Positions 2,835-44,356 of a DNA stretch of 64,000 nucleotides are shown piece after piece. The DNA comes from Candidatus Moraniibacteriota bacterium. Its GTDB lineage: Bacteria > Patescibacteriota > Minisyncoccia > Moranbacterales > UBA2206. Location: positions 41,828 to 105,827 of the forward strand of contig JAUXSK010000018.1 of the NCBI GenBank assembly GCA_030679995.1. The letters are read 5' to 3'. Under the pieces are notes generated by a model. That model was given only the letters and a program-made list of their open reading frames with translations. It was not told the origin of the DNA and made no database searches. Position 1 is the first letter of the stretch, and every line of letters starts with the position of its first letter. The position numbers were made by a program, and so were the translations under genes.

Positions 2835-2974
2835 AAATCCAGAATCCAAAATTACAAGCTCCAAATAAATTACAATGTTCAAAATTAAAAAATTCAAAAC
2901 CGTTTTGAATTTTGAAAATTGTAATTTAAATTTTATTTGATATTTGTGATTTTGAATTTGTGATTTAAAATATT
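2835..2974. repeat. Full copy (R3) of the palindromic intergenic element, lying between the two virB4-like ORFs.
   Basis: Same arms and central palindrome as R2. It ends in TATTATG, which provides the start codon of the 604-aa virB4 ORF. Confidence 0.75.
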
Positions 2975-4789: not shown

Positions 4790-4943
4790 GTTTTTATGAT
4801 TTCAAGTTTCAATCTGCCAGCTGGTAGACCAAATTATTCCAAATCAAATCCAAAGATCAAATTAAAAAATAACTTTTGATATATAGGCTTTGAGCTTGAT
4901 TTGGAATAATTTGAGCCTTGAATAATTTGGATTTTAAAAAATT

Positions 4944-5471: not shown

Positions 5472-5483
5472 AACAAAGTTTTT

Positions 5484-6143
5484 ATGGACACAAAACAAAA
5501 ATCCAGCCCCCTATCCCATTGGAGAACGGAATTGATCAGCTCCGCGATTGTTTTGTTGTGCTTGTTTTTAGCCGTTTATTTCCCAGCCCAAGGAACATTG
5601 CAACTTTTCAGTAACACACTATTCTTTCTCTTTTTATTGCCGGTCTTGTATATAAAAATTATTTTAAAGCAAAATTTGACTGATTTTGGCTTTAATACGC
5701 TAAATATATCTGCTGGTTTATTGTGGTCGCTTGCGATGTTAGCCTCTTCTTTCCTGATTATTTTTTTCTTAATGCATTTTTATAATTTTGAACAAAAATA
5801 TTTTCTTCCAACTTATCTAGCGCAAAATTTCTGGGTCTTTCTGTTCTATGAGCTGGTTCTGGCAAATTTCTTATTTTTTATACAAGGATTTTTCTTCAGG
5901 GGATTTGTTCTTTTTTCATTCGCGAAAAAATTGAATTTCTTCGCCCCCCTTATCCAATTTTTGATTTTCACATTGTTTCTCGCGGCTACAAATTCTATCA
6001 ATTGGAAGGCAGCTCCTTCCATAATACTATCCCTGACTGGCGGCATCGTGGCTTACAAAAGCAAATCATTCATCTATCCATATTTGACCAGTTTATTGTT
6101 TATGATTATCCTAGATGCCTATATAATTTATCTGTTCAAATAA
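5484..6143 (+). CDS. Phe-rich polytopic membrane protein, with at best a degenerate CPBP/Abi-like fold.
   Basis: About six TM helices. FIQGFFFRGF weakly recalls CPBP motif 1, but motifs 2 and 3 (the His residues) are absent. Confidence 0.4.
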   Translation: MDTKQKSSPLSHWRTELISSAIVLLCLFLAVYFPAQGTLQLFSNTLFFLFLLPVLYIKIILKQNLTDFGFNTLNISAGLLWSLAMLASSFLIIFFLMHFYNFEQKYFLPTYLAQNFWVFLFYELVLANFLFFIQGFFFRGFVLFSFAKKLNFFAPLIQFLIFTLFLAATNSINWKAAPSIILSLTGGIVAYKSKSFIYPYLTSLLFMIILDAYIIYLFK

Positions 6144-6149
6144 TTTTTT

Positions 6150-8822: not shown

Positions 8823-8855
8823 ACTATATTTGCCAAAAATACTAATATATCAAAT

Positions 8856-9821
8856 ATGTATAAAAAATTAACCGCCCTTCTTTTAGCCGTATTTTGTCTT
8901 GCGCCGACCTTGGTGCTCGCAGGCGCCTTCGATTACAGGCCGATGGAAATGATTCCCGGCTTTGAAGCTGAAACCGTCGGCAATTTCTACACCTATATCG
9001 GAGCGGTCTATAAATTCGGCCTATGGACCGTAGGGATTTGCGCGATGTTTATGATCGGCATCGGCGGCTATATGTACATCATATCCGCCGGCAACAGTTC
9101 CAGTATGACCAAAGCAAAGGGAGTGATTATCGACGCTATCGCCGGTTTGATCCTGGCGCTGGTTTCCTTTCTGATCCTATACGAAATCAATCCTAATTTA
9201 GTCAAATTAGGCGGCAACGACATCGGCGGCAATACCGCTTTGACTGAAAAGATTATCACCTCAAAAACATTAACCAAGGGCTGTGAAAACTACGCCAATG
9301 ATTTTGAATCCGCTTCCGGAGGCGATAAAAACCTGAAATGCCTACTTATCGGCATCGCCAATGCGGAAAGCAATTGCAATCCTAGTGCGATCAGTAAACA
9401 TAACGCCTGCGGAATGATGCAAATCTTACCGGCAACTGCCGGGCAATCCTGTGAGGAACTGTTATCCAATCCGTCCGCCAGCATCCAAAAAGCCGCTTCG
9501 ATCATCGCTTCCTCCCGCAACAGTATTCCGTCATCTTCCGGCTTTTCACTGGGAACAAGTTATGCCCTCGCTAAAACTACGGTAAGCTATGGCGATTATA
9601 CCTATGACACCGGCAATGACGACTTGATCGCCGCTTATAACGCCGGCTCCGGAAAAATTGCCGCTACGCCGGGCAAAGCCGGTCCATTCGTAGTTTCAAC
9701 GGACTGCCCGAGCCCGACCACTCCCGCCTGGCAATGCCATATCAATCCGGGCGGATTTTCCGAAACCCAAAAATATGTTATGCGCGTCCAATCGTTCCAA
9801 GCGGCTTGCTTGGCTAAATAA
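8856..9821 (+). CDS. Secreted lytic transglycosylase (SLT domain, VirB1-like) with an N-terminal VirB2/TrbC-like hydrophobic hairpin.
   Basis: SLT catalytic signature AESNCNPSAISKHNACGMMQI (E-S...GLMQ type). The N-terminal signal peptide is followed by two hydrophobic helices separated by SAGNSSSMTKAKG. Confidence 0.6.
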   Translation: MYKKLTALLLAVFCLAPTLVLAGAFDYRPMEMIPGFEAETVGNFYTYIGAVYKFGLWTVGICAMFMIGIGGYMYIISAGNSSSMTKAKGVIIDAIAGLILALVSFLILYEINPNLVKLGGNDIGGNTALTEKIITSKTLTKGCENYANDFESASGGDKNLKCLLIGIANAESNCNPSAISKHNACGMMQILPATAGQSCEELLSNPSASIQKAASIIASSRNSIPSSSGFSLGTSYALAKTTVSYGDYTYDTGNDDLIAAYNAGSGKIAATPGKAGPFVVSTDCPSPTTPAWQCHINPGGFSETQKYVMRVQSFQAACLAK

Positions 9822-18020: not shown

Positions 18021-19397
18021 ATGACCAACGAGGAACTTTGGCGGGCCGCTTTAGGGGAAATAGAGCTTTCGATCTCGAAGGCGAACTTCATCACATGGTT
18101 TAAAAACACCTCCATCCTATCAAACAATGATGGTCGCGTCATAATCGGCGTTCCTAACGGATTTGCCAAAGAATGGCTTGAAAACAAATACAATCTCTAT
18201 ATACTCAAAGCTTTGCGAAATATCCAGCCCTCTATAAAAGAGGTTTCTTGCGCCATAGGTTCCGAAAAGGAAAACGCCTTCCGAGAAAACCAGGTCGATG
18301 CGATCATCCCTCCAAAAAGGGTCGTTTTTGAAAAGCCACCGGTCGAAAAAAACTTTCAAATAAGCCAAGAAAATAACCTAAATCCTAAGTATATCTTTGA
18401 GAATTTTATCGTCGGTTCTAGTAATGAGCTGGCTAGGGCGGCCTGCTATGCCGTATCGCAAAATTTGGGCCGTATTTATAATCCGCTTTTCATTTATGGC
18501 GGAGTGGGCTTGGGAAAAACCCATTTATTGCAATCTATCGGCAATGAAATTCTTAAAAAAAATCCTTCCAAGAAAGTAAAATATATCACCTCTGAGCGCT
18601 TCACTAATGAACTGATCGACTCTATCCGGACCCAAAAAATAAACGAATTCAAAGAACATTACCAGAAAATCGACCTTTTAATCATCGACGATGTGCAATT
18701 CCTGTCCGGTAAAGAAAAAACTCAGGAAGAGTTTTTCCATATCTTTAATTACCTGTACCAACTAAACAAACAGATAGTTTTAAGCAGTGACCGCGCACCG
18801 AAAGCTATTCCGACTTTGGAAGAAAGGCTTCGTTCACGCTTTGAAGGCGGGATGATCGCAGATGTTTCCAAAGCTGATTTTGAAACAAGAATGGCTATTT
18901 TAAGCAAAAAGGCGGTTGATGAAGGGTTGACAATTTCCACCACCGCCCTTGATTTTATCGCCCAAAATATCACCCACAACATCCGCGAATTGGAAGGCGC
19001 GCTGAATCGCGTCATCGTCTCGTCGCAACTTACCAACCGGGAACCCACCTTAGATTATGTTTCCGCCCTATTATCAGACATTATCGCCAGTGGCAAAAAA
19101 AAGGGCATAACCCATAAACACATCATCGACGCCGTGTCTTCTTTTTATGATATTGACACCGCTGATTTGATTATGAAGAATAGAAAAAAAGAGGTTGTAA
19201 AACCCCGACAAGTAGCAATGTACCTTATGCGTAGTGAACTCCAATATTCCTACCCGGGAATCGGCGAAAAATTAGGTGGCAGAGACCACACCACCGCTAT
19301 CCATGCTTATGATAAAATATCCAAAGAATTAGAGTTCAATAAAAAACTACTTGAGGACGTCGCTTCTATTAAGGAGCAACTTTACAATATATCCTGA
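18021..19397 (+). CDS. dnaA: Chromosomal replication initiator DnaA.
   Basis: AAA+ Walker A GGVGLGKTHLL, sensor motifs and a C-terminal DnaA-box-binding domain. Confidence 0.95.
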   Translation: MTNEELWRAALGEIELSISKANFITWFKNTSILSNNDGRVIIGVPNGFAKEWLENKYNLYILKALRNIQPSIKEVSCAIGSEKENAFRENQVDAIIPPKRVVFEKPPVEKNFQISQENNLNPKYIFENFIVGSSNELARAACYAVSQNLGRIYNPLFIYGGVGLGKTHLLQSIGNEILKKNPSKKVKYITSERFTNELIDSIRTQKINEFKEHYQKIDLLIIDDVQFLSGKEKTQEEFFHIFNYLYQLNKQIVLSSDRAPKAIPTLEERLRSRFEGGMIADVSKADFETRMAILSKKAVDEGLTISTTALDFIAQNITHNIRELEGALNRVIVSSQLTNREPTLDYVSALLSDIIASGKKKGITHKHIIDAVSSFYDIDTADLIMKNRKKEVVKPRQVAMYLMRSELQYSYPGIGEKLGGRDHTTAIHAYDKISKELEFNKKLLEDVASIKEQLYNIS

Positions 19398-19672
19398 TAA
19401 CTTGTGGATAAACTGTATCCCAACCATTATCTATCCCTGTGTATATCTTCTGAATTAACCATATCCGCTGTGTGCACCCAAAAATAAATAATCCAATGTC
19501 TTGACTTATTCCCCAGCTATGAAAATCAGTGATAAAATATCAACTTATCAAATTATCCACAGTAAATTTACTTTATCTTAGCCATAAATAAGACATATCC
19601 CCAGAAATCCAATCCCTATATAATAAACAATAAACTTATAAATATTTAAAGATAAATTATTATATTAATACT
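19398..19672. promoter_or_regulatory. dnaA-dnaN intergenic region containing perfect DnaA boxes, the probable oriC.
   Basis: TGTGGATAA at 19404-19412 (reverse orientation) and TTATCCACA at 19553-19561, plus several one-mismatch boxes. The region is very AT-rich. Confidence 0.55.
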
Positions 19673-20827
19673 ATGAAACTAACTTGTACCCAAGAAAATT
19701 TTAAAAAAGCTGTCTTTAATTCGGAACGGATGGTTTCCAGACAAAACACCTTACCGATTTTAAATAATATTTTATTTGAAACTGAAAACGGGGGATTGAA
19801 ACTTTCTGCCACAAATCTTGAAATTGGGGTTTCCGTCCAAATCGGGGCAAAAATAGAAGAAGAGGGGAAAATAACTATTCCGGCTAAATTAATCAGTAAT
19901 TTCGTTAATAATCTGCCAGCTGGGGAAAATATATCCCTGGAAGTGATAGATCAAAGCCTTAAAATAAAAAGCGGTTCATCCAAAGCTGTAATAAAAGGCT
20001 TGTCAGCAGAGGATTTTCCTTTAATACCGAAAAAACAAACGGATTTCATATTGAATATACCAAGCTTGAAATTAAAAAATATAATTTCCAAGGTTATTAC
20101 ATGCGTGGCTTTTAATGAAACACGCCAAGAATTGACCGGGGTGAATCTTGTTTTAAAGGAAAAAGAAATTTTATTTGCCGCTACGGACAGCTTCCGTTTG
20201 GTCGAAAGCAGTTTGAAACTGGAAGAAGTGAATGTAAGCAGTGTTTATAAAGAATTTTTAGAGAAAAAAAATACATTCATTATTCCGGCAAATACCTTTG
20301 TGGAATTGGCGCGGATAATATCATCGGATATTGAAAGTGATATTAAAATAGTTTTTGAGGAGGGGCAGGTATTTTTTGAAATAGACGGTACGGATGTGGT
20401 TTCCCGCCTGATTAACGGTAAATATCCGGATTATAAACATATCGTGCCGGTAGAATTCAAAACCCGGATAGTGGGTGAAAAAAACATTTTTCAAGGAGCG
20501 CTTAAAATGTCCAGCGTTTTTTCAAGCGGGAAGACTAATGAAGTGGTGCTTAAAATCGATGCTGAGGAAAATAAACTCCTGATCGAAGCTAGGAGCGTAG
20601 AAGTGGGTGAAAACTCTTCAGAGCTCACTGTGGACATCGTGGGGTCATCTCAAGAAGTAGTTTTTAATTCAAAATATTTATTGGACGGGATAAACACGGT
20701 TATGACTTCGAAAGTTGCTATTCTTATGAATAATGCTTCCTCGCCGGTAGCGATCAAGGAAATCGATGAAAAAACCGGAGAAGTTTTAGAAGGGTATGTT
20801 TATATTGTAATGCCGATAAAGAATTAA
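19673..20827 (+). CDS. dnaN: DNA polymerase III beta sliding clamp.
   Basis: About 384 aa with the three-domain clamp pattern, directly downstream of dnaA. Confidence 0.9.
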   Translation: MKLTCTQENFKKAVFNSERMVSRQNTLPILNNILFETENGGLKLSATNLEIGVSVQIGAKIEEEGKITIPAKLISNFVNNLPAGENISLEVIDQSLKIKSGSSKAVIKGLSAEDFPLIPKKQTDFILNIPSLKLKNIISKVITCVAFNETRQELTGVNLVLKEKEILFAATDSFRLVESSLKLEEVNVSSVYKEFLEKKNTFIIPANTFVELARIISSDIESDIKIVFEEGQVFFEIDGTDVVSRLINGKYPDYKHIVPVEFKTRIVGEKNIFQGALKMSSVFSSGKTNEVVLKIDAEENKLLIEARSVEVGENSSELTVDIVGSSQEVVFNSKYLLDGINTVMTSKVAILMNNASSPVAIKEIDEKTGEVLEGYVYIVMPIKN

Positions 20828-28171: not shown

Positions 28172-29146
28172 TCAAATCTGTTTGTCATCGGAAACTGTCG
28201 TGTTTAATTTCAGGATGAAGTTTATGATGTCCTTGATGACATTCCTGGATTTGCCGTGAGTCGGGTTGTAATGGATATAGATGTCAGGCTTCCCGTTTAT
28301 TTCCAGGATTCCGAATGTCTGAGCGGCAGGATCCTCGGATATATTTTCGCAGATTATGTCGATGCCGGCAAGATAATAGCCGACCGCATCGGCGGCCTTG
28401 ACGCAAATGGAAATAATTTCTTTGTTGATCGAATCCGTGGCATCCCGGGTTTCCCCACCTTCAGCCAGGGAGGAACTTTTTTTGATAGAAACGGCTTCTT
28501 CGGCATCTAGGACGGAATCAAGCGAAAAACCTTGCTCGCGTAAAATTATTTCCAGCGCCCGGTCGATCGGAGTTTTTCGGCGGGTATGCTTCTGTTTTTT
28601 CTGGATGAGGGTGGCTATCGTGGATTTACCATCGCCGATGATTCTCGGCGGAATCATTTCCAGCGCCCCGATAACCTTTTTATCCAGTATGAGGATGCGG
28701 TATTCTTTGCCGAAGATCATTTCCTGGGCGATAAGCGATCTGAAATTCAAAATCTCTTTGATTATGACGGCTTTGGCCTCCTCTGCATTTTTTATGTAAG
28801 GGAAAATACCCTGGCTGTTTGAACCGGCGGAATCTTTGATGATTATGGGGAATTTTAGGTTGTTGAGTTTCTTTTCAACTTCTCCGGGTGTGAAATTTTT
28901 TCTGAAAAAAAAGACCGTAGTCGGCGTGGGAAGCGACTGGCGCCGGAGCAGCGTATAAGTCAGGTCCTTGTACGCCGTTGCGCCAGCGATGCTGATAAAG
29001 TTTTTGGCGATTCTGAATTTTCTTGTGATAAGAAAAGCCTTGCCACCTACGTGGATATAATAACAGCGCCTTTCCGGGATAACTTCTTCGAATGTCCCTC
29101 CCATTTCCTCGACGACTTTCCGGATCAATAAAGTGTTTTTTATCAT
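28172..29146 (-). CDS. ATP-grasp enzyme resembling the N-terminal ATP-grasp domain of cyanophycin synthetase and RimK.
   Basis: FPIIIKDSAGSNSQGIF, IIGDGKSTIATLI and GIDIICENISEDPAAQTFGILEINGKP motifs. Confidence 0.6.
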   Translation of the reverse strand: MIKNTLLIRKVVEEMGGTFEEVIPERRCYYIHVGGKAFLITRKFRIAKNFISIAGATAYKDLTYTLLRRQSLPTPTTVFFFRKNFTPGEVEKKLNNLKFPIIIKDSAGSNSQGIFPYIKNAEEAKAVIIKEILNFRSLIAQEMIFGKEYRILILDKKVIGALEMIPPRIIGDGKSTIATLIQKKQKHTRRKTPIDRALEIILREQGFSLDSVLDAEEAVSIKKSSSLAEGGETRDATDSINKEIISICVKAADAVGYYLAGIDIICENISEDPAAQTFGILEINGKPDIYIHYNPTHGKSRNVIKDIINFILKLNTTVSDDKQI

Positions 29147-30537
29147 TTTTTCACGTCGATTAAAAATTTGTTCAAATTTATCTTCCCGATAATCATCGGA
29201 TATTTCATATGCGATCGGTCGACCAAGGTTATTTTCGTGGGGATGGTTATCGTATCCATAGTGAATTCGATATTGATCATCGGACGGTAGGTGTAGCCAT
29301 TGGATGATTTTACAGGAATGGTGGAAACGATATCCGGAATATCCTTATAAATTTCCCAGCGCTCTTTTTTATCCAATTTCTTCAAATTTTCATAAGGCAT
29401 TTTTAATTTTTCAAATTCATCGATCGTTTTTTCAAAGCCCAGCGTTTTGGCCAGGCTGTCATCGATGGATGACCAGTCGGCGCCCGTGTCGATTTTAGCT
29501 TCCACTTCTATCGTCTTGCCGTCTTTTCCGACCAATTTGATTTTTTCCACGGTGCCGATGACTTTCCGGCCGGAAATTTCCTCGACTTCTTCCTCGATTT
29601 CTCCCCCGAATAGATCCATACCCATCCGCACTCCGCGGGCGATAGTTTTTATTTTGAGGCCGGAAACGCGCCTGAGCCTTTCGGCGAGGCCGGCCAGATT
29701 GGCGACTTGGATGGAAAGTCCCGGGCGGGCATTAAGCTCCAGGATGACTGGGCCGTGATTTTTATCGATAGCCACATCCACGCCTAGGAAGCCCAGATTG
29801 GAAATCTCTTGGGACTTCGAGGCCAGGAGCAGGATATCTTTCCAGTAGGGGATGCGGATGCCGCTGACGGGGAAATTCGTGCCGGGAATTTTTTCAATAA
29901 ATTTATTTTTCCCCTGGATAGCCGTCGTAGTCACTCCGGTGGCCATATCGATTCCGACGCCGACAGCGCCTTGTTGCAGGTTGGCTTTGCCTCCGGATTC
30001 CCGGGTGGGCAGGCGCAACATCGCCATCACTGGGACTTTATTGAAGACGATGACGCGGATATCCGGAATGCCCTTATATGAATAGGGTTTGAATAATTTC
30101 AGAAGCTGCAGGCGCTCTTCAAAAAATGCGATATCCGGCGTGTTGGACAGGGAAAATGAACCGTCCAAAATATTGCGGATGTGGCTGCGCAAATCTTCGA
30201 TAGTGATGAGCGAGCGGTCAGCCTTGACCCATGCGTCATCCCGCCCCTTCTTTTTTCCGTAAACCACGATGATGCCTTCGCCACCAAAACCGCGATTAGG
30301 CTTCAGAGCGAAACTTGAAGGAAGGGATTGCCAATCGAAATTTTCCAAATCTTCGATAGTTTTGATTTTGGCGATCAAGCTCGGCACGGCTATGCCGCTT
30401 TTTTTCAGGACTCGCTTGCTGAGTAACTTGTCGTCAGCCAGCCGTTTGGCCCGAAGCCGATTATACGGGCGAATGAACTCAAGATTTCTTGAGTTCATAC
30501 CGAGAAGCTTTTGGCTGTTTTTGAAAAATTCAAACAT
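29143..30537 (-). CDS. Fusion of an ATP-grasp ligase (alpha-L-glutamate-ligase-related) to a C-terminal retropepsin-like aspartyl-peptidase domain (Pfam 'Zn_protease').
   Basis: N-terminal FALKPNRGFGGEGIIVV...GKANLQQGAVGVGID...ILELNARPG, and C-terminal AKIDTGADWSSID (a DTGA aspartic-protease signature). Confidence 0.65.
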   Translation of the reverse strand: MFEFFKNSQKLLGMNSRNLEFIRPYNRLRAKRLADDKLLSKRVLKKSGIAVPSLIAKIKTIEDLENFDWQSLPSSFALKPNRGFGGEGIIVVYGKKKGRDDAWVKADRSLITIEDLRSHIRNILDGSFSLSNTPDIAFFEERLQLLKLFKPYSYKGIPDIRVIVFNKVPVMAMLRLPTRESGGKANLQQGAVGVGIDMATGVTTTAIQGKNKFIEKIPGTNFPVSGIRIPYWKDILLLASKSQEISNLGFLGVDVAIDKNHGPVILELNARPGLSIQVANLAGLAERLRRVSGLKIKTIARGVRMGMDLFGGEIEEEVEEISGRKVIGTVEKIKLVGKDGKTIEVEAKIDTGADWSSIDDSLAKTLGFEKTIDEFEKLKMPYENLKKLDKKERWEIYKDIPDIVSTIPVKSSNGYTYRPMINIEFTMDTITIPTKITLVDRSHMKYPMIIGKINLNKFLIDVKK

Positions 30538-30540
30538 CGG

Positions 30541-31200
30541 CTAGAGTTTTTTAATAATATCTTTGAAACGGATATATTCGCTCACCCGCAATCCGGTCCA
30601 GCGGCCGATCATAACATTAAAGGGTATGGTGAATAGGATGACCCAGGGATAGGCGACCAAGAGTTTTATCAATGCTCCCCAACTGGCGATATAAAAGCCT
30701 GCTACGGAAATGACCAGGGTTTCAAACGCCAAGATGAGCGCGGTCTTATTGCCTTTTTCAATTTGCACGGCGACGAATTTTTCTACCAGCGTGATCATAA
30801 TCAAAATAGGGAAAATTGAAACGGAAGCCAGTCCGGTCCTGCGCAGGTTGCCGCCGAAAACAAGCAACAATAGGATTAAAACGGCAACGACGGTCAACAT
30901 TATGGCGACACGGGGAAGGTAGAGGAGCCGGAAGGGCTTGAGGATGAAGCGCATCAGCATCCCGATGAAAATGACCGCTAAAAAAATCGCCACGCCATAA
31001 CGCAATCCGTTAGTAGCCAGGAAGGCGAAGGTGATGATAAGGGGCGTGTAGATGCCAAAAGCTTTGATACCGACGACTTGGCGCAAGAAAGCGATCAAAG
31101 TCGCGATAATCGGCAACATCAGGATTAAGATGATCGTTTCAAAAGGCACGCCTTCGATAAGGAAAAAACGGATTATGGGGCTGATGTTCAAGTCCATCAA
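30541..31200 (-). CDS. 7TM membrane protein, first gene of the ATP-grasp cassette. It may be related to the 7TM modules linked to RimK-like ligases.
   Basis: Seven predicted hydrophobic helices in 219 aa. It is spaced 4 nt from the next gene on the same strand. Confidence 0.5.
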   Translation of the reverse strand: MMDLNISPIIRFFLIEGVPFETIILILMLPIIATLIAFLRQVVGIKAFGIYTPLIITFAFLATNGLRYGVAIFLAVIFIGMLMRFILKPFRLLYLPRVAIMLTVVAVLILLLLVFGGNLRRTGLASVSIFPILIMITLVEKFVAVQIEKGNKTALILAFETLVISVAGFYIASWGALIKLLVAYPWVILFTIPFNVMIGRWTGLRVSEYIRFKDIIKKL

Positions 31201-31287
31201 GTTTTTAAGTTTTTAAGTTTTTAATTTTTTAAATGATGTTCGGAGAACATCATTGCTGAAATTAAAAATCAAAAATTCGTTTAAAAA
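31201..31287. repeat. AT-rich intergenic element with (GTTTTTAA)x3 direct repeats and a palindrome.
   Basis: AAGTTTTTAAGTTTTTAAGTTTTTAATTTTTTAAATGATGTTCGGAGAACATCATT...AAAAATTAAAAATT. Confidence 0.5.
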
Positions 31288-31806
31288 TTAAAAATTGTTA
31301 ACTTTCCGGCTGTTTATGTGGCAAATGGCGATCGCTAAGGCGTCAGCCGTATCATCCGGCTTAGGCACGGCTTTCAGGCCTAAAATGCTTTTAACCATCA
31401 GCTGGACCTGCTTCTTTTCCGCTTTGCCGTAGCCTGTGACGGCTTGCTTCACTTGCAGTGGCGTGTAGCTAGCTATCTTGACACCTTTTTGCTCTAGTGT
31501 CAAGAGGATGCCGCCTCTGGATTGCCCGACACTGATGATAGTCTTTTTATTTTTGAAAAAGAATAGCTGTTCCACGGCCGCTTCGCGGGGATGGTATTTT
31601 TCAATGATATTGACAAGATCTTCGGATATCTCAGCCAAGCGGTTTTCCTCTGAATTGTTTTTGGGGGTGGAAATATGCCCGAAAGCCACCGGAACAAGAA
31701 TTCCGGCATTTTCTTCAATAATAGCCCAGCCGACCGTCGCCGTGCCTGGATCTATGCCCAAAACGCGTAACGGATGGCTTATGATTTGTTTTTTAGCTCC
31801 CCCCAT
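31288..31806 (-). CDS. ruvC: Holliday junction resolvase RuvC.
   Basis: LGIDPGTATVGWAII N-terminal RNase H-fold motif, 172 aa. Confidence 0.85.
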   Translation of the reverse strand: MGGAKKQIISHPLRVLGIDPGTATVGWAIIEENAGILVPVAFGHISTPKNNSEENRLAEISEDLVNIIEKYHPREAAVEQLFFFKNKKTIISVGQSRGGILLTLEQKGVKIASYTPLQVKQAVTGYGKAEKKQVQLMVKSILGLKAVPKPDDTADALAIAICHINSRKVNNF

Positions 31807-34227: not shown

Positions 34228-36222
34228 TTATAAGGCCAGGGTGATTTTGTTTAGAAAAGAACTTATTTTTATATTCAGGTTTTCCAGCAATGTGATAGCC
34301 CAGTGTTTGCGCGCGGGAAAATTTTCAAAAGCATAATCGGGTTGCAAGCGCGGGTTTTCCCCGGCGAAGGCTTGGGCGGTGCTGATGTGAAGGCCGAAAT
34401 TGATGAAGGAAAACCTGGTTTTTTGTCTGTTTTCCCAATCGGGCGAAGGCGATGATTGGCCGAGATCCTTCGCGGTTTCCGGAGTGGGAAGAATTTCTTC
34501 TTGGATTTTTTCTTCGACGATTCCAGTCGCCGTATTATTTTCCGCGGGAGTCGCCAAGGGGCTTGGCTCTTTTTCGGCCGGCGTTATGACGGCTGGGATG
34601 TTCCATTTCCAGCCGGACTTGGTTTTTACATAGGTCGCGCCTTCGGCGACGGATTTCTTTTTGTCGCCATAGCTGACGTGCGAAGCGGTTTTACCGTTCG
34701 GATAGCGCAGTTCTATTTTTCCTTTGGTATTCGGCAAAGTGAATTTCGAAACGGCATAGGTGATTTTGGCGGCTTTACCGTCTTTTATGAAAAAATCTTC
34801 CGTAATCGGATGATTGGATAATGTCTTTGTTCCGCTGGCGATGCTCCAATTTTTAAGGTTGATTTTCTTTTTAGTGTTATTTTTAATATTCAAAAATTCC
34901 GCGCCGGTATCGGCTCCGTCCGGATTAGGCGAGAGGCTGATTATTTTGACATCCAGCTTGGGAAATTTTTCCACTTCGATTTTGAAAGTGTCGATTTTGT
35001 CCTCGCTGCCATCAGAAACTTTTAGCGTCACTTTATATTCGCCGGTCTTTTCATATTTGTGGCGGGTTTTTTGCAAATAACTCTTGTGTCCGTCGCCGAA
35101 ATCCCAAGTATATTTCAAATTATCTTTATCTTTATCAGAGCCTTTGGCGGAAAATTCGGCATAAGTATTCACATAAACTTTTTCCGGAACTTCATCTTTG
35201 ACTTGGGGAAAGTTGTTGAAAATATTTTCCGCGCCCGGTGTTAAAAATTTACTCCAGCGCCAATTTTTTCCGTCGAAGTTGTAGGAAATATTTTGTTTAG
35301 CGCTTTTGTAATCGATCGTGGAAATTGTTTTTCCATCCGGGGAATAAAGCGTGACCGATTCCGAACCGGAATTGTTCAGGGCGAACTTGAAATCCTTTTT
35401 ATGAATTACAAGATAGCTTTGTGATTCTAAAGATGTGTTTTTGGGAAAAACATACTTTCCGCTCTTGGAGGCATCATGCAATATCCAGCCGGAAAGATCG
35501 ATTGGCAGTTCTTCCGGATTGTATAATTCGATGAATTCTTCACCGTCGGTTGAGGGATAGGGAAGCAGCTCGTTCAGAGTCAGTTTTTCTGAGTATGCTT
35601 CAGATTCTTCGGGCGGTGAGGTGACCTCCACATCTTGACCGGTAAAATTTTCTATTCCAGGGGTTCCATTATTAACGTAGCTTTCTTGCCAAATATCGTC
35701 GTCTAAATCGAATTCCAAGGTTTTTTTATTTCCATTGGCCCCCATCGTTTTGTCATAAGAAGTGCCAGCCGACCATGTCTTGCAACGATCAAAACTGATT
35801 TTTATTCCAGCCTGTGTATTATTTAGATTTAAGACCGAATCTGATAATGTTCCTGCATAATCAGGATGATCATTTATAAAATCATTTTTATTATCCGCGA
35901 TTATAACATATTCTTTCGAGGCCATATTTAAATCAGAATCAAACGTATGGCAGGTGTTTTTTAATTTTCCGTTAGCATCGCGTTCTTCTTTTTCATCGAT
36001 AAGCCCTAATGAATTTTTCGGAATATTTATTTTCGAACCGGACGCGTTAAAAATTTCAATCCATTCCCTCCCGGTATCGCTGCCATCAAGGTCGTACATT
36101 ATTTCGGTGATAATCAGATCGGCAGAAATTTCATCGGCGGAAAGTTTTTCTGAAAGAATAAAAAACCCTGTCAATAAACAGGGTAAAAAAGCGGCCAGAT
36201 AGATTTTGCGTTTGTTTTTCAC
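34228..36222 (-). CDS. Secreted protein with three lamin-tail domains (LTD) and a PKD domain.
   Basis: LIITEIMYDLDGSDTGREWIEIFN, LNELLPYPSTDGEEFIELYNPEELPIDLSGW and IISLSPNPDGADTGAEFLNIKN are LTD motifs. YTWDFGDGH...YKVTLKVSDG is a PKD domain. An N-terminal signal peptide is present. Confidence 0.6.
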   Translation of the reverse strand: MKNKRKIYLAAFLPCLLTGFFILSEKLSADEISADLIITEIMYDLDGSDTGREWIEIFNASGSKINIPKNSLGLIDEKEERDANGKLKNTCHTFDSDLNMASKEYVIIADNKNDFINDHPDYAGTLSDSVLNLNNTQAGIKISFDRCKTWSAGTSYDKTMGANGNKKTLEFDLDDDIWQESYVNNGTPGIENFTGQDVEVTSPPEESEAYSEKLTLNELLPYPSTDGEEFIELYNPEELPIDLSGWILHDASKSGKYVFPKNTSLESQSYLVIHKKDFKFALNNSGSESVTLYSPDGKTISTIDYKSAKQNISYNFDGKNWRWSKFLTPGAENIFNNFPQVKDEVPEKVYVNTYAEFSAKGSDKDKDNLKYTWDFGDGHKSYLQKTRHKYEKTGEYKVTLKVSDGSEDKIDTFKIEVEKFPKLDVKIISLSPNPDGADTGAEFLNIKNNTKKKINLKNWSIASGTKTLSNHPITEDFFIKDGKAAKITYAVSKFTLPNTKGKIELRYPNGKTASHVSYGDKKKSVAEGATYVKTKSGWKWNIPAVITPAEKEPSPLATPAENNTATGIVEEKIQEEILPTPETAKDLGQSSPSPDWENRQKTRFSFINFGLHISTAQAFAGENPRLQPDYAFENFPARKHWAITLLENLNIKISSFLNKITLAL

Positions 36223-37106: not shown

Positions 37107-38195
37107 TCAGATTAATTTGTTAGCGTTTGAATATTTTATGCCCAGGTGGTTGTAGGCGTGCTCGGTCACCATGCGGCCGCGCGGAGTCCTGGTCATAAAG
37201 CCGATTTGCAAGAGATAGGGTTCGTAGACATCCTCGATCGTCTTTATTTCTTCGCTGGTTGCCGCGGCGATCGTGCTCAGGCCGACCGGTCCGCCGTTGA
37301 ATTTTTCGATAATGGTGCGCAAGATGTGGCGGTCGGCCGGTTCCAACCCGATCGGGTCGACGTCGATCATTTCCAGGGCTTCCTGCGCGATGGCGCTGTC
37401 CACGAATGGGTGGTTTTTGATCTGTGAAAAGTCGCGTACGCGTTTCAAAAGCCGGTTGGCGACGCGCGGGGTTTGGCGGGCGCAACTGGCGATTTTGGCT
37501 AGTCCGGTGTCGTGGATATCCACGCCTAGGATCCGGCTGGATCTTTTGATGATATCCTTCACTTCCTCGTTTCCATAGAATTCCAACCGGTAGGTAGCGC
37601 CGAAACGGTTACGCAACGGATTGGTGAGTGATCCAAGTTTGGTCGTGGCGCCGATAAGGGTGAATTTAGGCAGATCCAACTGGATGGTGCGGGCCGAGGG
37701 GCCTTTGCCGATGATGATATCCAATTTGAAATCTTCCATCGCCGGATAGAGGATTTCTTCGATGGATTTATTGAGCCGGTGGATTTCATCGATAAATAGG
37801 ATATCGCCATCTTGCAAATTAGTCAGGATCGAACCGAAATCGCCGACGCGCTCGATGGCCGGGCCGGAAGTGGTCTTAATGTTGACGCCCATTTCTTTGG
37901 CGATGATGTTGGCCAGAGTCGTTTTGCCTAGTCCAGCCGGGCCGTATAGCAGGATGTGTTCGATAGGCTCTTTACGTTTTTTGGCGGCGCGAAGCAGGAA
38001 ATCCAGATTTTTTTTGACTTTCTCCTGGCCGATATATTCGGAAAAACTCTGGGGACGCAAGGTGTTATCCAGATTATTGTCTTCAACGGTTGCTTTCGGC
38101 TGGGTAGCGGAGGCCAGATCATTGAATTGTTCGGATGAATCGACTAACACAAGTAGTTTTAAATTTTCAATTTTAAATTTAAAATGAAATCCCAA
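37107..38195 (-). CDS. ruvB: Holliday junction helicase RuvB. Its N-terminal ~25 codons are encoded by AT-rich repeat sequence, so the true start may be further downstream.
   Basis: Walker [15 protein letters not shown], Walker [11 protein letters not shown] and sensor motifs. Confidence 0.9.
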
Positions 38196-38618: not shown

Positions 38619-39794
38619 TTATTTCTTATGGCAAGGCCGCAACAATACCCTTATCTCATAATCAAGAGTGAGAACTCTGTTTCTGAGAAAGGAAGCGCAT
38701 TCGTCGATTTCTGAGATTTCTGATATTTCAACTAGAAAATCATCATGTGATGCGGTTATGTCGCAAGTCTGTAATAGGCCATATTTTTTAATTATCAGCC
38801 GGTACAGTTCGCTTGAAACATCGGTTCGCAGGCGGTTTATTCGCCTTGCTTCATGTAAACGGATGGCGGATTCCTGGTCCGTCGTTCCGCGTGTTATCAG
38901 CAAGGCCTGCAAATTATTCGCGGGACAGGCTGATTCCCAGAGTTTTTCCTTGAGGATTATTTTCCTGTGGGTGACTAAGTCACCGGAAATATCCTCCACC
39001 ATTCCCATCAGGGTGTCTCCCAAGGCTTTTTTCGAAAAAGCCTTGTTTTTGTCGCACGTTTGCAAGAATGAAACAAGGATATCCCAAAAAATGCATTCCC
39101 CAGCCGTAACGGACGGGGTGAAATGGAACTTTCCTGATGAGCGTTCCGCTTTTTCTAGCAGGCACTGGCCATATTCGCCAAGTCGATTATTCGTTTCCGG
39201 ATTATGGAAGTCCAAATCAGGAAAGGAAATCTTCGAGACTTCGGAAATAACCAGGTCTCTTAAGACGAGATACATCGGACAGTAGGTCGGTTCATCAATC
39301 GCGCAAGGAATTATTTCATCAACGCTGCCGGTGCTTCTTCTGACCAGCACATCGAATTCATCTCCACCTGCCCGGTCGATTTCCAGGATCAGCGAATGCT
39401 TTTCGCAAAAGTCCCGGATTGTCTGGTTATGGAGAGCTCCGGCAACCAGATCCAGCAGGGCATCACCTAATCGATGGCTGCCGACATCGTTGACCGTTTT
39501 CAGTCCATCCAGATCGAAACGGATCTTAGCGACCCGTTTCAGTCGGGTTTTGATTTCGGCTATCGGCTGGCCGCTAAAAAGAGTTAGGATAAAAATATTG
39601 CGAATCTCGTTTTTTATCCAAGCTCCGCCCTCGTGGAAGCCATGCTTGGCTGCCAACTTCTCGTAATTTGGGGGAGAACAAGTCTCCTTATCGTCATTTG
39701 GTGTCGCCACCCTACTTATCAATTCTTGTAATTCGCTTTCCATAGTCATACGTCGATTCTCCTGTCGAATTTTAAGATTGATGCTTAAGTCCAC
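38619..39794 (-). CDS. GGDEF-domain diguanylate cyclase (catalytic motif intact, no I-site) with a C-terminal extension of unknown function.
   Basis: FDLDGLKTVNDVGSHRLGDALL...RAGGDEFDVLV follows the canonical D.D..K..ND..GH..GD..L...R.GGDEF order. GGDEF lies at nt 39354-39368. Confidence 0.7.
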   Translation of the reverse strand: MDLSINLKIRQENRRMTMESELQELISRVATPNDDKETCSPPNYEKLAAKHGFHEGGAWIKNEIRNIFILTLFSGQPIAEIKTRLKRVAKIRFDLDGLKTVNDVGSHRLGDALLDLVAGALHNQTIRDFCEKHSLILEIDRAGGDEFDVLVRRSTGSVDEIIPCAIDEPTYCPMYLVLRDLVISEVSKISFPDLDFHNPETNNRLGEYGQCLLEKAERSSGKFHFTPSVTAGECIFWDILVSFLQTCDKNKAFSKKALGDTLMGMVEDISGDLVTHRKIILKEKLWESACPANNLQALLITRGTTDQESAIRLHEARRINRLRTDVSSELYRLIIKKYGLLQTCDITASHDDFLVEISEISEIDECASFLRNRVLTLDYEIRVLLRPCHKK

Positions 39795-39876: not shown

Positions 39877-42800
39877 TCACAGGTCAGTCACCCGTTCGAT
39901 TTCTTCGATGGTAGTTTCACCCTCCAAGACTTTCAATACGCCGTCTTGGGCCATCGTCAACATTCCGTTTTCCATAGCCTTGTCGGCCAATTCAGAAGTG
40001 ATGGCGCCTTGGGTAATAAGGGCTTGGATGTCTTTATCGACAATAAACACTTCACTGATGGTGGTGCGGCCTTTGTAGCCGAGGTAATTGCATTTTTCAC
40101 AGCCTTTGGGTTTGCAGATTTTTTCAATCGGCGGGATTTCCACGCCGGATTTCGGTGAAATCGTTTTGATAACCATAGTGATTTTTTCTTTTTCTTCGAG
40201 TGTCGGAATGGTTTTTTCTTTGCAGTCGCACAATTTGCGCACCAGGCGTTGTGCCATAAAAGCGTTTACGCCGGAAGCGATATCGGAAGGCGAGACGTCC
40301 ATATTGAGCATCCTCTGGACCGCTCCAGCCGCGTTGTTGGTGTGGATGGTAGAAAGGACCAAATGTCCGGTCAGCGCGGCTTGCACGGCGACTTCGGCGG
40401 TCTCGTTGTCGCGGATTTCACCGATCATCATAATGTCAGGATTCTGGCGCAAGAGCGAACGCAGGGCGGTCGGAAAAGTATAACCCTCTTTGTCGTTCAC
40501 GGGAGTTTGCAGCAGACCTTCGATTTGGTACTCGATCGGATCTTCTACGGTGATGATTTTCACTTCGGGTTTATTGAGGATATTCAAGAGACTGTAGAGG
40601 GTAGTGGTTTTGCCGGAACCGGTCGGACCGGTATTTAGGAAAACCCCGTTTGGCTTGGAAATTTCGTGCAAGATTTTTTTCTTGTTCTGTTCGCGGATGC
40701 CGAGCTTGTTGATGTCCAATTCTTGCGAAGCCTTGCTTAAAAGCCGCATTACTACGGTTTCCCCGTAGCCGCCGAGAATGATGGAGATACGCACGTCGAC
40801 CGATCTTTCCTTGACATCGGCAATCTCATCGGCGAAGCGGATTGAAAAACGGCTGTCGACGACGCCTTCGCGCACTTGGGATTTGACGCCGCTCAGGATT
40901 TTTATTTCACCGAGGATGGCCGGATATTCATTGAGCGGCAATGCCACGACGGTTTGCAGGATGCCGTCGATGCGGAACCGGAATTTCACATCGTTTCGTC
41001 CTGGCTCGATGTGGATGTCGCCGACCCCGAGCAATGAGGCGGCTGCGAAGATGATTTTGTTGATATCGGGGACTTTGGCGAGGTAGATGGCGGCTTGGAG
41101 TTTTTTGAAATCGGCGATGTTTTCTTGGGCTTTGGCAAAAGATTCCTCGTCGACCAGGATATTGCGGCCGAGCGATTGGGACATCAGCTTTTCATAGACG
41201 CCTTCCAAGAAATCACCTTCGCCCGTGACACGCTTCACTTCGTCGATGGAGGTTATGCCGCCCAAAGCTTTCAAAATTCCGTCTTGCAACATCGTGATCA
41301 TTCCGGCCTCCAGCGCGGCCACGGTCAATTCCGTTTCTCCAGCCAGATTGAGAATCAGGCTTTCCAAATCCTCATTGAGGGTGAGCACTTCAAAGATGCC
41401 GATGCGTCCCTTATAACCGAGATTATTGCATTTGGGGCAACCCTTCGGCCGGTAGAGCTTGGTGATCTCTTTGGGTACCTCGACTTTGGCTTTGGGGGAT
41501 ATGATGGATAATATTTTTTTGATGGAAGCGAGTGATTCTTTGGCTGGCACATATTCCTCCTTGCAATCGCACAATTTGCGCACTAATCTTTGGCCGATAA
41601 TCGCATTGACAGCGGGAACGATCAGCGAGGGCTTCACGCCCATCTCGATGAGGCGGGGGATGGTCCCGATGGCGTTGTTGGTATGGATGGTGGAAAGGAC
41701 CAAATGTCCGGTCAGCGCCGAGTTGACGGCGATGTCGGCTGTTTCTTCATCGCGGATTTCTCCCACTAGGATGACGTCCGGATCCTGCCTGACGATGGCG
41801 CGCAAACCGTTGGCGAAAGTGTAGCCACGGGATCTTTCAATCTGGGTCTGGGAAATGCCGGCGACTTCATATTCGATCGGATCTTCGATGGTGATGATTT
41901 TCGTTTCCGGATCGTTGAGTTTGTTGATGAAAGAATAGAGAGTGGTGGTTTTACCGGAGCCGGTCGGACCGGTCGTGAGAATCATACCGTTAGGCGCGGA
42001 AATCTGTTTTTGCAACTCCTCATAGGCCAGGCCTTGCAGTCCCAGACTTTCCACATTGACCTGGATGGAGGAGGGATCAAGAAGGCGCATAACCACACTT
42101 TCTCCGAAACTGCCTGGAATGATGGAAACGCGGATAGCGATTTTTTTAGCTTCGATGTTCACTTCGAAATTACCATCCTGGGCGATGTCGCGCAGGTTGA
42201 TTTTCATGCCCGACATCATTTTTATCCTGGAGATGATGGTTTTGAAGATATTCAGAGGCAAAAAAGCCACGTCATGCAAGACGCCGTCGATCCGGTAGCG
42301 CAGACGGAATTCTTTTTCCTGCGGTTCGATGTGGATATCGCTTGCGCCAAGTTTATAGGCGCCGCCCATGACGATATTCAGGACTTGGGTAGTCGGTAAC
42401 TCGTTAATCCGTTGTTTCAGGGTGATGAGGTCTTTCAGATATTCATCGAATTTTTCCAAATCGTCCCCGGTGAGGTTGACGCTTAGCTGGGAAAGGATGT
42501 CGGTGAAAACGATCTTTTTATATTTCTCTAGGACTTTATCCATATTATAGCGGGAAATCACGAAAATCTGCGTATCCCAACCCCTGGTTTCAGAAAGATT
42601 TTTCAAGTATCCGACAGTTTTCAATTGTATCGGATCAGGCGAGACTATCGTAGCTTTCTTGCCGATTTTCTGGATGATGGCGATATCATAGAGCCTTGCA
42701 TCTTCCTCGGATAGCAACTTCAGGCTTTCAGTGCTGATCGGGACGAGATTGGTGTCAAGATATGGCAGTCCGAGCGCCGCCGCGAAAGCTGCCGCCTGCT

Positions 42801-42912
42801 CTTCTTCGGATTGGTGGCGTAAATTGGACAGGACTTTGGCGGTGTCAGTTTCTTTTTGAGAAGCTCCGACAGTTCCCAAGGATGATGAGCGGTCCCTTAA
42901 TATTTTTATCAT
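39877..42912 (-). CDS. pilB: Covalently fused tandem GspE/PilB-family secretion ATPase with N1-N2-CTD-N2-CTD architecture.
   Basis: Two complete modules. Each has Walker A GPTGSGKTT (nt ~41944-41973 and ~40601-40633), Asp box, Walker B (DPDVILVGEIRDEETA and NPDIMMIGEIRDNETA), His box LTGHLVLSTIHTNNA and a tetracysteine CDCK...C(P/E)KCN. A GspE_N-like N1 domain lies in the first ~150 aa. Confidence 0.85.
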   Translation of the reverse strand: MIKILRDRSSSLGTVGASQKETDTAKVLSNLRHQSEEEQAAAFAAALGLPYLDTNLVPISTESLKLLSEEDARLYDIAIIQKIGKKATIVSPDPIQLKTVGYLKNLSETRGWDTQIFVISRYNMDKVLEKYKKIVFTDILSQLSVNLTGDDLEKFDEYLKDLITLKQRINELPTTQVLNIVMGGAYKLGASDIHIEPQEKEFRLRYRIDGVLHDVAFLPLNIFKTIISRIKMMSGMKINLRDIAQDGNFEVNIEAKKIAIRVSIIPGSFGESVVMRLLDPSSIQVNVESLGLQGLAYEELQKQISAPNGMILTTGPTGSGKTTTLYSFINKLNDPETKIITIEDPIEYEVAGISQTQIERSRGYTFANGLRAIVRQDPDVILVGEIRDEETADIAVNSALTGHLVLSTIHTNNAIGTIPRLIEMGVKPSLIVPAVNAIIGQRLVRKLCDCKEEYVPAKESLASIKKILSIISPKAKVEVPKEITKLYRPKGCPKCNNLGYKGRIGIFEVLTLNEDLESLILNLAGETELTVAALEAGMITMLQDGILKALGGITSIDEVKRVTGEGDFLEGVYEKLMSQSLGRNILVDEESFAKAQENIADFKKLQAAIYLAKVPDINKIIFAAASLLGVGDIHIEPGRNDVKFRFRIDGILQTVVALPLNEYPAILGEIKILSGVKSQVREGVVDSRFSIRFADEIADVKERSVDVRISIILGGYGETVVMRLLSKASQELDINKLGIREQNKKKILHEISKPNGVFLNTGPTGSGKTTTLYSLLNILNKPEVKIITVEDPIEYQIEGLLQTPVNDKEGYTFPTALRSLLRQNPDIMMIGEIRDNETAEVAVQAALTGHLVLSTIHTNNAAGAVQRMLNMDVSPSDIASGVNAFMAQRLVRKLCDCKEKTIPTLEEKEKITMVIKTISPKSGVEIPPIEKICKPKGCEKCNYLGYKGRTTISEVFIVDKDIQALITQGAITSELADKAMENGMLTMAQDGVLKVLEGETTIEEIERVTDL

Positions 42913-43075: not shown

Positions 43076-44356
43076 TCAATGGCTGATTTCTTTTATTTTC
43101 TTAGCGATCGATTCTCCAGCCTCAGCTATGTTGGCCATAGTTAGGTGTATCTCCAATGTGTCGCGCTTGAGCGTGCCGTTGAAAAACTGATTGATTCTTT
43201 TTAGCAATTCTTGGTCGGATGATTTCAAATCAGCTACGGTCGAAAGGGAAGTATCATTATAGAGAGCCATAAAAATTTTACCATCACTGTAGTTTTCCTG
43301 CAATTTCTCCAAAATCAGCGCGATATCGGTTTGGTTGGAACGGCTTTGCACGAAATCTTCCACACTGATGATTGTCCAAACCAATTTAGTCTGTTCATCC
43401 AGATTGAGATTTGACATGGCGCGCCCCCAAAGTTTCAGGATATGCAAAGGCTGGGTTTTGTACAGCCAGCGGATGATAGTCTGCTGGTCGGCTTTTTTGT
43501 CCATCAGGGCGGCGGCGGCCAAGAGGGATCGCGGAGTGGTGTTTTTCTTCTGGAAACTTTCCGTGGCGCTGATGATACCGGTCAGAAGACAGTCGGCGAT
43601 AGCCTTGTCGATCAGGTTCACATCCATATCATTGAAGGCGGCGCTTAGGATTTCGCTGCAAGATGAAGCGGTGGTATCGACCAGGTTGATTTGGCCGAAA
43701 TTGTCATTGTCGCTGCGGTGGTCGATATTGACGATCGGGACTTCGAAAAACAGATCCGGATTATTCTCATATATCTTGCCGAGCCGTTCCAAGTCCGGGC
43801 TGTCCAAAACAACGATCAGGTCATATTTGAATTTGGCCAGGATGAAAGAGAAATCACGCGGATTGAGCGCGCCTTTCTCAGGCGTCAGATAAATATTCAA
43901 TTTATCGGCTGTTTTTTCCGTGCGGATATCCCGGATCTTATTGTAGGCCGTGTCGAATGACAGTACGAAGTCGCGGGCGCCGGAAATTTCCGTGAGGATC
44001 CCCTCCGGCTTAGGCAGGAAATCATATTTGGCGGAGAGGTGGTTGGAAAAGGCGATCGTAGCCCGGACGCCTTTTTTTTGCAGAAAAAAATAGAGCGCCC
44101 AAGCGCTGCCGACCGCATCTCCGCTGGGATTTTCCGGAATCAAAACCAGTACATCTTGGGATTTGTCTATGAATTGCTTGAATTGTTCCTGGGGTGACAG
44201 TGTCATAAGTTGATAGTTATTTTTAAGCAGTATTACAAGATAACAGGATAAAAAGCGCGTGTCAAATAAAGCCCTCTTTTCTTTTTGGCGGATTACCGCT
44301 AACATATGTATGTTATGGAAAAAGAATTTATCACTGGAAATTTCAAAGAAACGCAA
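43076..44356 (-). CDS. nrnA: DHH/DHHA1-family phosphoesterase (NrnA-like nanoRNase / pAp phosphatase).
   Basis: DHH-family layout with VNIDHRSDNDNFG (a DHR variant of the DHH motif) and a C-terminal DHHA1-like GGGH region. Confidence 0.6.
   Translation of the reverse strand: MRFFEISSDKFFFHNIHMLAVIRQKEKRALFDTRFLSCYLVILLKNNYQLMTLSPQEQFKQFIDKSQDVLVLIPENPSGDAVGSAWALYFFLQKKGVRATIAFSNHLSAKYDFLPKPEGILTEISGARDFVLSFDTAYNKIRDIRTEKTADKLNIYLTPEKGALNPRDFSFILAKFKYDLIVVLDSPDLERLGKIYENNPDLFFEVPIVNIDHRSDNDNFGQINLVDTTASSCSEILSAAFNDMDVNLIDKAIADCLLTGIISATESFQKKNTTPRSLLAAAALMDKKADQQTIIRWLYKTQPLHILKLWGRAMSNLNLDEQTKLVWTIISVEDFVQSRSNQTDIALILEKLQENYSDGKIFMALYNDTSLSTVADLKSSDQELLKRINQFFNGTLKRDTLEIHLTMANIAEAGESIAKKIKEISH

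Follow-up and report, generated by a model that had tools for sequence, protein, structure and literature searches.

The closest described relatives of the protein considered here are the motor ATPases of the PilB/GspE/PilF clade, represented by structures of PilB (5TSG/5TSH), Vibrio cholerae GspE (4KSR) and Thermus thermophilus PilF (5OIU). PilB rings have been described as 'beads on a string', in which the N2D of one subunit together with the next subunit's C-terminal domain (CTD) forms packing units, N2D(n)+CTD(n+1), joined by flexible linkers (PMC5424180, PMC6858323). In a stretch of 64,000 nucleotides from the genome of a Candidatus Moraniibacteriota bacterium (GenBank assembly GCA_030679995.1, contig JAUXSK010000018.1, positions 41,828 to 105,827), referred to below as the window, we examined a gene for a member of this clade, 1011 amino acids (aa) long, in which a single N1 domain is followed by two complete motor modules, each consisting of an N2D and a CTD. 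The protein resembles its solved relatives in fold, sequence motifs, arginine fingers, pore-loop acids, zinc site and probably its N1 domain, and its first module is 45% identical to Geobacter metallireducens PilB, PilB(Gm), but it differs from them in carrying a second motor module in each chain (and a third in one ortholog) with one N1 domain for both, a structured linker, a second module devoid of an N2D arginine that is conserved in the clade, and a gene that lies outside any pilus or secretion operon.

Partial precedents for such an arrangement exist in other ATPases. In the F1/V1-ATPase alpha3beta3 ring and in Pex1/Pex6, diverged paralogues in three pairs supply the six P-loop modules of a ring that is pseudo-symmetric (C3) and works in a rotary cycle; the members of each pair are separate proteins and one F1 paralogue is non-catalytic, whereas the tandem pair is covalent, both of its modules are apparently catalytic and its ring is a prediction. 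KaiC, p97/Cdc48, ClpB/Hsp104 and EccC of the type VII secretion system likewise carry two or more duplicated P-loop modules per chain and form hexamers, but they belong to other ASCE/AAA+ families and place their modules in separate coaxial rings. Covalent tethering has also been exploited in GspE-Hcp1 fusions (4KSR/4KSS) and single-chain ClpX pseudo-hexamers, either to force a ring to form or to put chosen mutations at chosen ring positions. These are laboratory constructs, whereas the tandem is a natural fusion long maintained by selection. Within the PilB family, T. thermophilus PilF (6F8L) is also a long protein (~900 aa) that arose by internal domain duplication, but it repeats the GSPII/N1 domain (three copies) and has one motor module, while in the tandem it is the motor module that is repeated.

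How PilB-family ATPases couple ATP hydrolysis to pilin insertion is still disputed, and the tandem protein bears directly on this question. A C2 rotary cycle has been proposed for PilB (PMC5424180), a C6 concerted alternative has been put forward with no agreement on the two-fold symmetry (PMC9765406), and it is disputed whether the platform protein PilC is a dimer or a trimer (PMC11656802, PMC10790770).

Layout, integrity and distribution of the tandem ATPase

The gene is a single uninterrupted open reading frame (ORF) with an ATG start and no internal stops. Its features are given below, with residues numbered from Met1 as 1 and with N2D boundaries transferred from the N2D of PilB(Gm), residues 181-288 (PMC5424180).

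39877..42912 (-): complete ORF of the tandem PilB/GspE-type ATPase, 1011 aa, 111.3 kDa; stop codon at 39877-39879
42520..42774 (-): N1 (GSPII/MshEN-type) domain, residues 47-131, single copy, PF05157 match below cutoff
42079..42399 (-): module 1 N2D, about residues 172-278, with R229 (the 'SRIK' arginine, kept) and arginine fingers R261 and R276
41221..42057 (-): module 1 CTD, about residues 286-564, with Walker A 315-322, Asp box 339-347, catalytic E385 in Walker B, pore-loop D388/E390, His box 401-410 and zinc cysteines 448/450/492/495
41080..41220 (-): inter-module spacer, residues 565-611, a linker helix followed by duplicated connector helices
40738..41079 (-): module 2 N2D, about residues 612-725, with R708 and R723 (arginine fingers) and R688 kept, and E669 in the place of the 'SRIK' arginine
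39880..40716 (-): module 2 CTD, about residues 733-1011, with Walker A 762-769, Asp box 786-794, catalytic E832 in Walker B, pore-loop D835/E837, His box 848-857 and zinc cysteines 895/897/938/941

Pfam T2SSE (PF00437) matched the protein in two full-length stretches with a total of 756.7 bits against a cutoff of 24.9, and the hidden Markov model (HMM) envelopes of the two modules extend over residues 168-563 and 608-1009. The top NCBIfam models, GspE (TIGR02533) and PilB (TIGR02538), likewise matched in two stretches each, while the PilT-type model TIGR01420 reached its cutoff only when the scores of both modules were summed. The modules are 48% identical to one another (BLASTP, residues 154-563 versus 594-1009, E = 1e-135). 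There is one N1 domain for the two motor modules; its PF05157 match is weak in the window protein (18.3 bits, under the cutoff of 23.1), and many close relatives carry a precomputed match to this family. The MshEN motif for binding cyclic di-GMP (c-di-GMP) was sought in the N1 domain and is absent.

The nearest solved relatives are PilB, GspE and PilF (E = 1e-84 to 1e-111), versus 1e-31 for PilT, and each module has a fold close to the PilB/PilF core, with a template modelling (TM) score of about 0.9 to 5oiu/5tsh. The structure comparison yielded no PDB chain spanning two motor modules. Identity as a PilT/PilU retraction ATPase was ruled out on the combination of a zinc motif, a weak N1-type match and the absence from the tandem ATPase of the PilT-type motif AIRNLIRE. 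A PilB-PilT fusion was also ruled out, both modules being of the PilB/GspE type. Judged by its sequence, each module taken alone is an ordinary member of the PilB/GspE clade.

Both modules retain the catalytic apparatus of that clade. A motif scan located Walker A (GPTGSGKT) at residues 315 and 762, the Asp box at 339 and 786 and the His box (TGHLV) at 401 and 848. Walker B reads DPDVILVGEIRD at 377 in module 1 and NPDIMMIGEIRD at 824 in module 2, and each module has a zinc tetracysteine (C448/C450/C492/C495 and C895/C897/C938/C941) that is kept across the tandem family with the exception of P0128 module 2. When the protein was mapped onto PilB(Gm), using the residue list of McCallum et al. 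2017 (PMC5424180) and a chain index equal to the native number + 20, the arginine fingers R271/R286 corresponded to R261/R276 in module 1 and R708/R723 in module 2, Asp-box E357 to E347 and E794, catalytic E395 to E385 and E832, the pore-loop pair D398/E400 to D388/E390 and D835/E837, and R455 to R445 and R892; equivalents of T411, H413 and H420 are present in both modules. These catalytic and inter-subunit residues are invariant across the tandem family in both modules. The arginine fingers are arginine in each of the 74 Moranbacteria-level sequences and in every deep tandem cluster tested (16 proteins), and a valid P-loop, Asp box, Walker B and His box occur in both modules of all clusters of the main tandem family as well as in P0129 and P0131, two fusions considered below. 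Column identity amounts to 0.81-0.87 for the N2D and CTD of both modules. Purifying selection acts on both, and both are apparently catalytically competent.

One difference of detail concerns the first zinc pair, which in the subclade of the window protein is CxC (C448-D-C450, ~41563-41571, and C895-D-C897, ~40222-40230), whereas deeper tandems and solved PilB/GspE proteins have CxxC instead.

The spacer between the module envelopes is ~45 aa long (residues 564-607). Approximately residues 565-593 constitute new linker sequence, including a conserved amphipathic helix, GEGDFLEGVYEKLMSQSLGR, at about residues 565-584, and from residue 594 onwards the sequence duplicates the N1-N2 connector of module 1. 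The linker has the consensus GEGDFLExIYEKLMSQTLGR, the junction is in frame in all of 74 aligned proteins, and the column identity of the linker (0.68) exceeds that of the N1 domain (0.64).

Two neighbouring PilB genes merged through an error of sequencing, assembly or gene calling could in principle yield such a product. The junction DNA contains no ambiguous bases (zero N) and no homopolymer longer than A6, and stops abound in both alternative frames. At the DNA level, the two halves of the gene share a sole match of 448 bp at 69% identity. The same in-frame junction with its conserved linker recurs across four data sources (NCBI, JGI, ENA and Logan assemblies), in more than 119 independent clusters at 90% identity, and in at least ten genomes of species representatives, which excludes a local frameshift or assembly artefact for practical purposes. 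Moreover, every 'single' protein that groups with module 2 proved to be only a fragment of a tandem. We therefore attach a negligible probability to an artefact, and the tandem architecture is real and conserved.

A search for close relatives among 5.8 billion protein clusters, in which the best 120 matches were considered, yielded 119 clusters of 1004-1055 aa with 97-100% query coverage and 69-100% identity. Their labels are mostly Candidatus Moranbacteria or Parcubacteria, and the match at 100% bears the name 'GspE/PulE family protein [Candidatus Moranbacteria bacterium]'. An HMMER search against 1.84 billion representatives clustered at 50% identity gave 15,461 T2SSE proteins at E < 1e-30, of which only about 15 clusters are two-module proteins of ~980-1050 aa. 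The deepest of these, with identity to the window protein down to 38-39%, derive from Parcubacteria, Paceibacterota, Falkowbacteria and Moraniibacteriota; named members belong to the Parcubacteria group/Paceibacterota and include KKU82539.1 from the 2015 groundwater genomes. With a probe spanning the junction, at least ten tandem loci were found in GTDB species representatives, assigned among the matches listed to Parcubacteria, Moraniibacteriota, Falkowbacteria and Patescibacteria, and the remaining matches listed cover one module only. On this sampling of protein sequences, the tandem architecture is rare in the superfamily and typical of a deep clade of the candidate phyla radiation. It would represent a lineage-specific addition to the surface machinery of the Parcubacteria/Paceibacteria, ultrasmall, episymbiont-like and uncultured bacteria whose type IV pili are thought to serve contact with the host and the uptake of DNA.

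Most of the original prediction was upheld by these results. It had described an N1 domain followed by two full N2+CTD units, the former matched weakly by Pfam and the latter seen by Pfam, NCBIfam, the motif scan and the BLASTP self-alignment alike, with both catalytic modules intact, as all motifs and the four zinc cysteines in each confirm, and with an in-frame linker of ~45 aa, which matches the spacer of about 45 aa whose other frames are stop-filled. It had also considered the duplication to be old rather than an assembly artefact, and the divergence of the halves, together with the recurrence of the junction, bears this out. The suggestion that the architecture might be undescribed for the family also held in so far as the portions of full text covered by literature searches, including those of a 2024 PilB review and of the MshEN paper, contain no description of a tandem PilB/GspE; it therefore seems undescribed. 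To the question whether such fusions are common and already annotated the answer is divided: they are common in the lineage and have been deposited since 2012-2015, but under generic names only and with the tandem never mentioned. What is new here is the covalently repeated motor module, the conserved structured linker, the presence of one N1 domain for two modules and the derived character of module 2.

Asymmetry between the modules and origins of the fusion

Differences between the modules were evaluated against 67 single-module PilBs, in which 111 columns are conserved at ≥80%. Module 1 departs from none of the 111 and module 2 from three. The clearest case among the three is the arginine of the N2D 'SRIK' motif (R238 of PilB(Gm)), which is arginine in 62 of the 67 single-module proteins. 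Four conserved arginines have been described in the N2D (PMC9765406), and by its position the 'SRIK' arginine is taken to be one of them; it is not named in PMC5424180, PMC9765406 or PMC11656802. It is kept in every module 1 (13/13 deep clusters and 74/74 close relatives) and is replaced, mostly by glutamate, in every module 2 of the main family over the same clusters and relatives, as well as in module 3 of the three-module ortholog described below; the younger independent fusions still have it. Loss of an N2D arginine from module 2 only is the pattern expected if one N2D interface had become intramolecular, with its constraint relaxed. We also considered R257 of PilB(Gm) as an indicator of which modules are neighbours, but it proved uninformative: it is absent from module 1 only in the subclade of the window protein, and its partner E357 is represented in both modules.

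A neighbour-joining tree of 103 modules was constructed with 100 bootstraps; its deep nodes are weakly supported. All module 2s of the main family group together, and most module 1s fall in a neighbouring group. The shared linker and the module 2-specific substitutions led us to conclude that the main family derives from one old fusion. In P0129, P0131 and P0136, by contrast, the two modules of each protein are sisters (bootstrap 100, 97 and 98, respectively) and the conserved linker motif is absent, such that at least three younger independent fusions, and thus at least four origins in total, appear to have occurred. This repeated origin suggests that the fused arrangement is readily tolerated.

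The modules of P0129 are 73% identical and those of P0131 55%, and their linkers are short and unrelated to that of the main family. P0136 (1047 aa) carries a PilC-type T2SSF segment at its N-terminus (residues 118-203), and its first ATPase module lacks the Walker A lysine (GPTGSGTTT); it may be a fusion of a platform domain, a pseudo-ATPase and an ATPase.

A further protein, P0027 (L081:8001-12383, 1460 aa), known from one contig of a single JGI sample, contains three T2SSE stretches. Identity between its modules 2 and 3 is 58%, and the linker motif, as DFLREIY, stands ahead of each. Since its synteny matches that of the window gene (RuvB, bPH, LTD/PKD, TsaE, DHH and the ATPase), we consider P0027 to be an ortholog that has gained one module, rather than an assembly expansion.

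Among the closest single-module relatives are eight PilBs (P0152, P0161, P0162, P0164, P0167, P0185, P0194 and P0205) with C-terminal extensions of 150-300 aa that have no Pfam match and contain two copies each of a helical motif, L..YL..LE.EQ...P..G[IV]. They seem to represent a distinct PilB architecture that is as yet uncharacterised.

Proposed arrangement of the modules in a ring

Solved PilB hexamers show a CCOCCO pattern of closed (C) and open (O) interfaces with C2 symmetry, and OCOCOC (C3) states are found in PilT, FlaI, DotB and archaeal GspE2 (PMC5424180, PMC6858323). BfpD has C6 symmetry, and what the two-fold symmetry means is a matter of open debate (PMC9765406). The fixed order of two non-identical modules in one chain limits the available symmetries. 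In a ring of three fused dimers (3x2), position n and its C2 partner n+3 are always occupied by modules of different type, so that the ring cannot be strictly C2; conversely a ring of two three-module chains (2x3) cannot be C3. The 3x2 ring thus fits only a C3 (OCOCOC-like) or an asymmetric cycle, and the three-module form would fit C2. For this reason the original prediction stands only in part. A trimer-of-dimers pseudo-hexamer remains plausible as a model, but its hard-wiring of C2-symmetric, alternating open and closed pairs into the non-equivalent subunits fails: CCOCCO comprises three interface states with a period of 3, not 2, and hence does not consist of alternating open/closed pairs, and conformational states cannot be assigned to module type because the 3x2 ring is not C2 and every site of a rotary motor cycles through every state.

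The arrangement that we consider most likely, with about an even chance of being correct, is a trimer of fused dimers within one ring. Three chains would form a single six-module ring in which the N2D of each module docks on the CTD of the next, as in PilB packing units, and modules 1 and 2 alternate round the ring. The ring would sit beneath a trimeric, internally duplicated PilC-type platform with two cytoplasmic domains per monomer, and would power the assembly of a type IV filament whose remaining parts are encoded elsewhere in the genome. That a ring forms, that the modules are arranged in it in this way, that a PilC-type platform is the partner and that the function is pilus assembly are inferred from several observations. 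The presence of pore-loop acids in both modules fits both facing one central pore, and inter-subunit residues are likewise kept in both; the packing-unit architecture makes the tethering of neighbouring protomers topologically natural; and the recurrence of the fusion lends support, as do the loss of the N2D arginine from module 2 only and the fact that two and three both divide six. Furthermore, in-silico evidence cited in a recent review has PilC/PulF as a trimer whose 3x2 cytoplasmic domains contact six ATPase protomers (PMC11656802), an organisation that a trimer of fused ATPase dimers would mirror.

Several results weigh against this arrangement or the data behind it. AlphaFold2 modelled the full chain with a predicted local distance difference test score (pLDDT) of 76.8 and a predicted TM score (pTM) of 0.43, giving good domains and no confident inter-module geometry, and a construct of CTD1, linker and N2D2, designed to look for a packing unit formed within one chain, gave a pLDDT of 62.5 and a pTM of 0.40 and likewise no confident geometry. 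The deep nodes of the neighbour-joining tree are weak, and the three 'independent' fusions and the triple are each known from one contig. The tandem gene was never found beside genes for PilC, PilM or pilins (in the window, at loci L001-L010 and at L081), so that it is homology that links it to a pilus machine; in the 64-kb window there is also no second T2SSE gene and no prepilin signal motif. Finally, all solved PilBs are C2 CCOCCO, a state that a 3x2 ring could not reproduce exactly (PMC5424180, PMC6858323).

The rival that deserves most attention, although we judge it somewhat unlikely, is a stacked double ring of six chains, in which a ring of module 1s, with N1 at the membrane platform, would lie above a coaxial ring of module 2s. 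Stacking rather than alternation of modules is the commonest solution among tandem P-loop ring ATPases, as in KaiC, p97, ClpB and EccC. The spacer of ~45 aa would be long enough, the three-module ortholog could equally be explained as three stacked rings, and module 2 is the more derived, as expected of a ring with a different job. The C-terminus of a PilB-type ATPase can feed a second ring, given that an engineered GspE carrying Hcp1, itself a hexameric ring, at its C-terminus formed hexamers in crystals (4KSR/4KSS), presumably with the two rings stacked coaxially. A second ring would, however, be out of reach of PilC, and yet module 2 keeps its pore-loop acids, arginine fingers, His box and zinc site and is under selection as strong as that on module 1. 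Nor does stacking predict the loss of the N2D arginine from module 2 alone, and no stacked ring of motor modules is known in the PilT/VirB11 family.

It is less probable still, in our estimation, that the protein is a PilB-derived ATPase no longer driving a type IV filament, acting instead in another process, in a smaller assembly or in a mixed oligomer with a single-module PilB. In favour of this, the gene is consistently an orphan amid housekeeping genes (DHH phosphoesterase, RuvB, TsaE, FtsH and translin), and a dedicated pilus ATPase may already exist, since locus L044, from a genome labelled Moraniibacteriota, carries a canonical operon with a single-module PilB, PilC, pilins, PilM and PilN. 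Against this, the PilB-specific features (N1-type domain, zinc tetracysteine, pore-loop acids and arginine fingers) are all kept, orphan genes for motor ATPases are common in type IV filament systems, and a search for a tandem and a single-module PilB on one contig produced no match.

Returning to the trimer of fused dimers, a fuller version of it is possible but distinctly more tentative. The tandem and the triple would then be natural covalent pseudo-hexamers, the former a C3 ring with alternating modules, in which each fused dimer is matched 1:1 with a duplicated PilC monomer, the modules are specialising and tethering has relaxed the N2D interface of module 2. If this were so, a PilB-clade assembly motor would work without the C2 CCOCCO state, which would speak for a trimeric platform and for a mechanism that is sequential or compatible with C3, and the protein would be a ready-made system for introducing mutations at defined ring positions. 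In particular, mutating one module would permit catalysis to be knocked out at every second position of the ring, otherwise requiring an engineered single-chain hexamer.

Genomic neighbourhood

L001, L002, L009 and L081 share with the window the gene order DHH, tandem ATPase, RuvB, and the distant tandem locus L006 lies among genes for FtsH, translin and an MFS transporter. The flanking genes in the window are:

43076..44356 (-): DHH-family phosphoesterase, upstream neighbour, syntenic in Moranbacteria, context only
37107..38195 (-): RuvB, downstream neighbour, within the conserved synteny of housekeeping genes

Directly downstream of the tandem gene is an ORF of 391 aa (38619-39794, -) with a literal GGDEF motif (RAGGDEFDVL) and a Pfam GGDEF score of 20.5 bits, under the cutoff of 23.8. 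It has no counterpart in related loci and is therefore considered an insertion specific to the window genome. A link to c-di-GMP through this neighbour was rejected on that ground and because N1 lacks the MshEN binding motif.

Within a few kb of the tandem ATPase lies a gene for a large protein of secreted type with LTD (lamin-tail) and PKD domains (34228-36222, -), which recurs near the tandem in L001, L002, L081:3864-6131 and the distant locus (L006:2611-5229). Adjoining ATP-grasp genes (28172-30537, -) encode a fusion of a sugar-transfer-associated ATP-grasp with a putative zinc protease domain, and a RimK-like protein; L001 and L003 share synteny for the former gene and for adjoining genes at 30541-31806.

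At one end of the window (1603-9821, +) there is a cluster resembling type IV secretion or conjugation systems, which encodes a PrgI-family protein, a P-loop ATPase of the VirB4/TraG type (604 aa), two proteins similar to pilins of type IV secretion systems, an SLT lytic transglycosylase and, from large ORFs, proteins that match nothing in Pfam, such as one of 890 aa at 6150-8822. The dnaA and dnaN genes adjoin one another at 18021-20827 (+) and the GC skew switches sign at ~20 kb, and the replication origin of the chromosome is probably located near 20 kb of the window.

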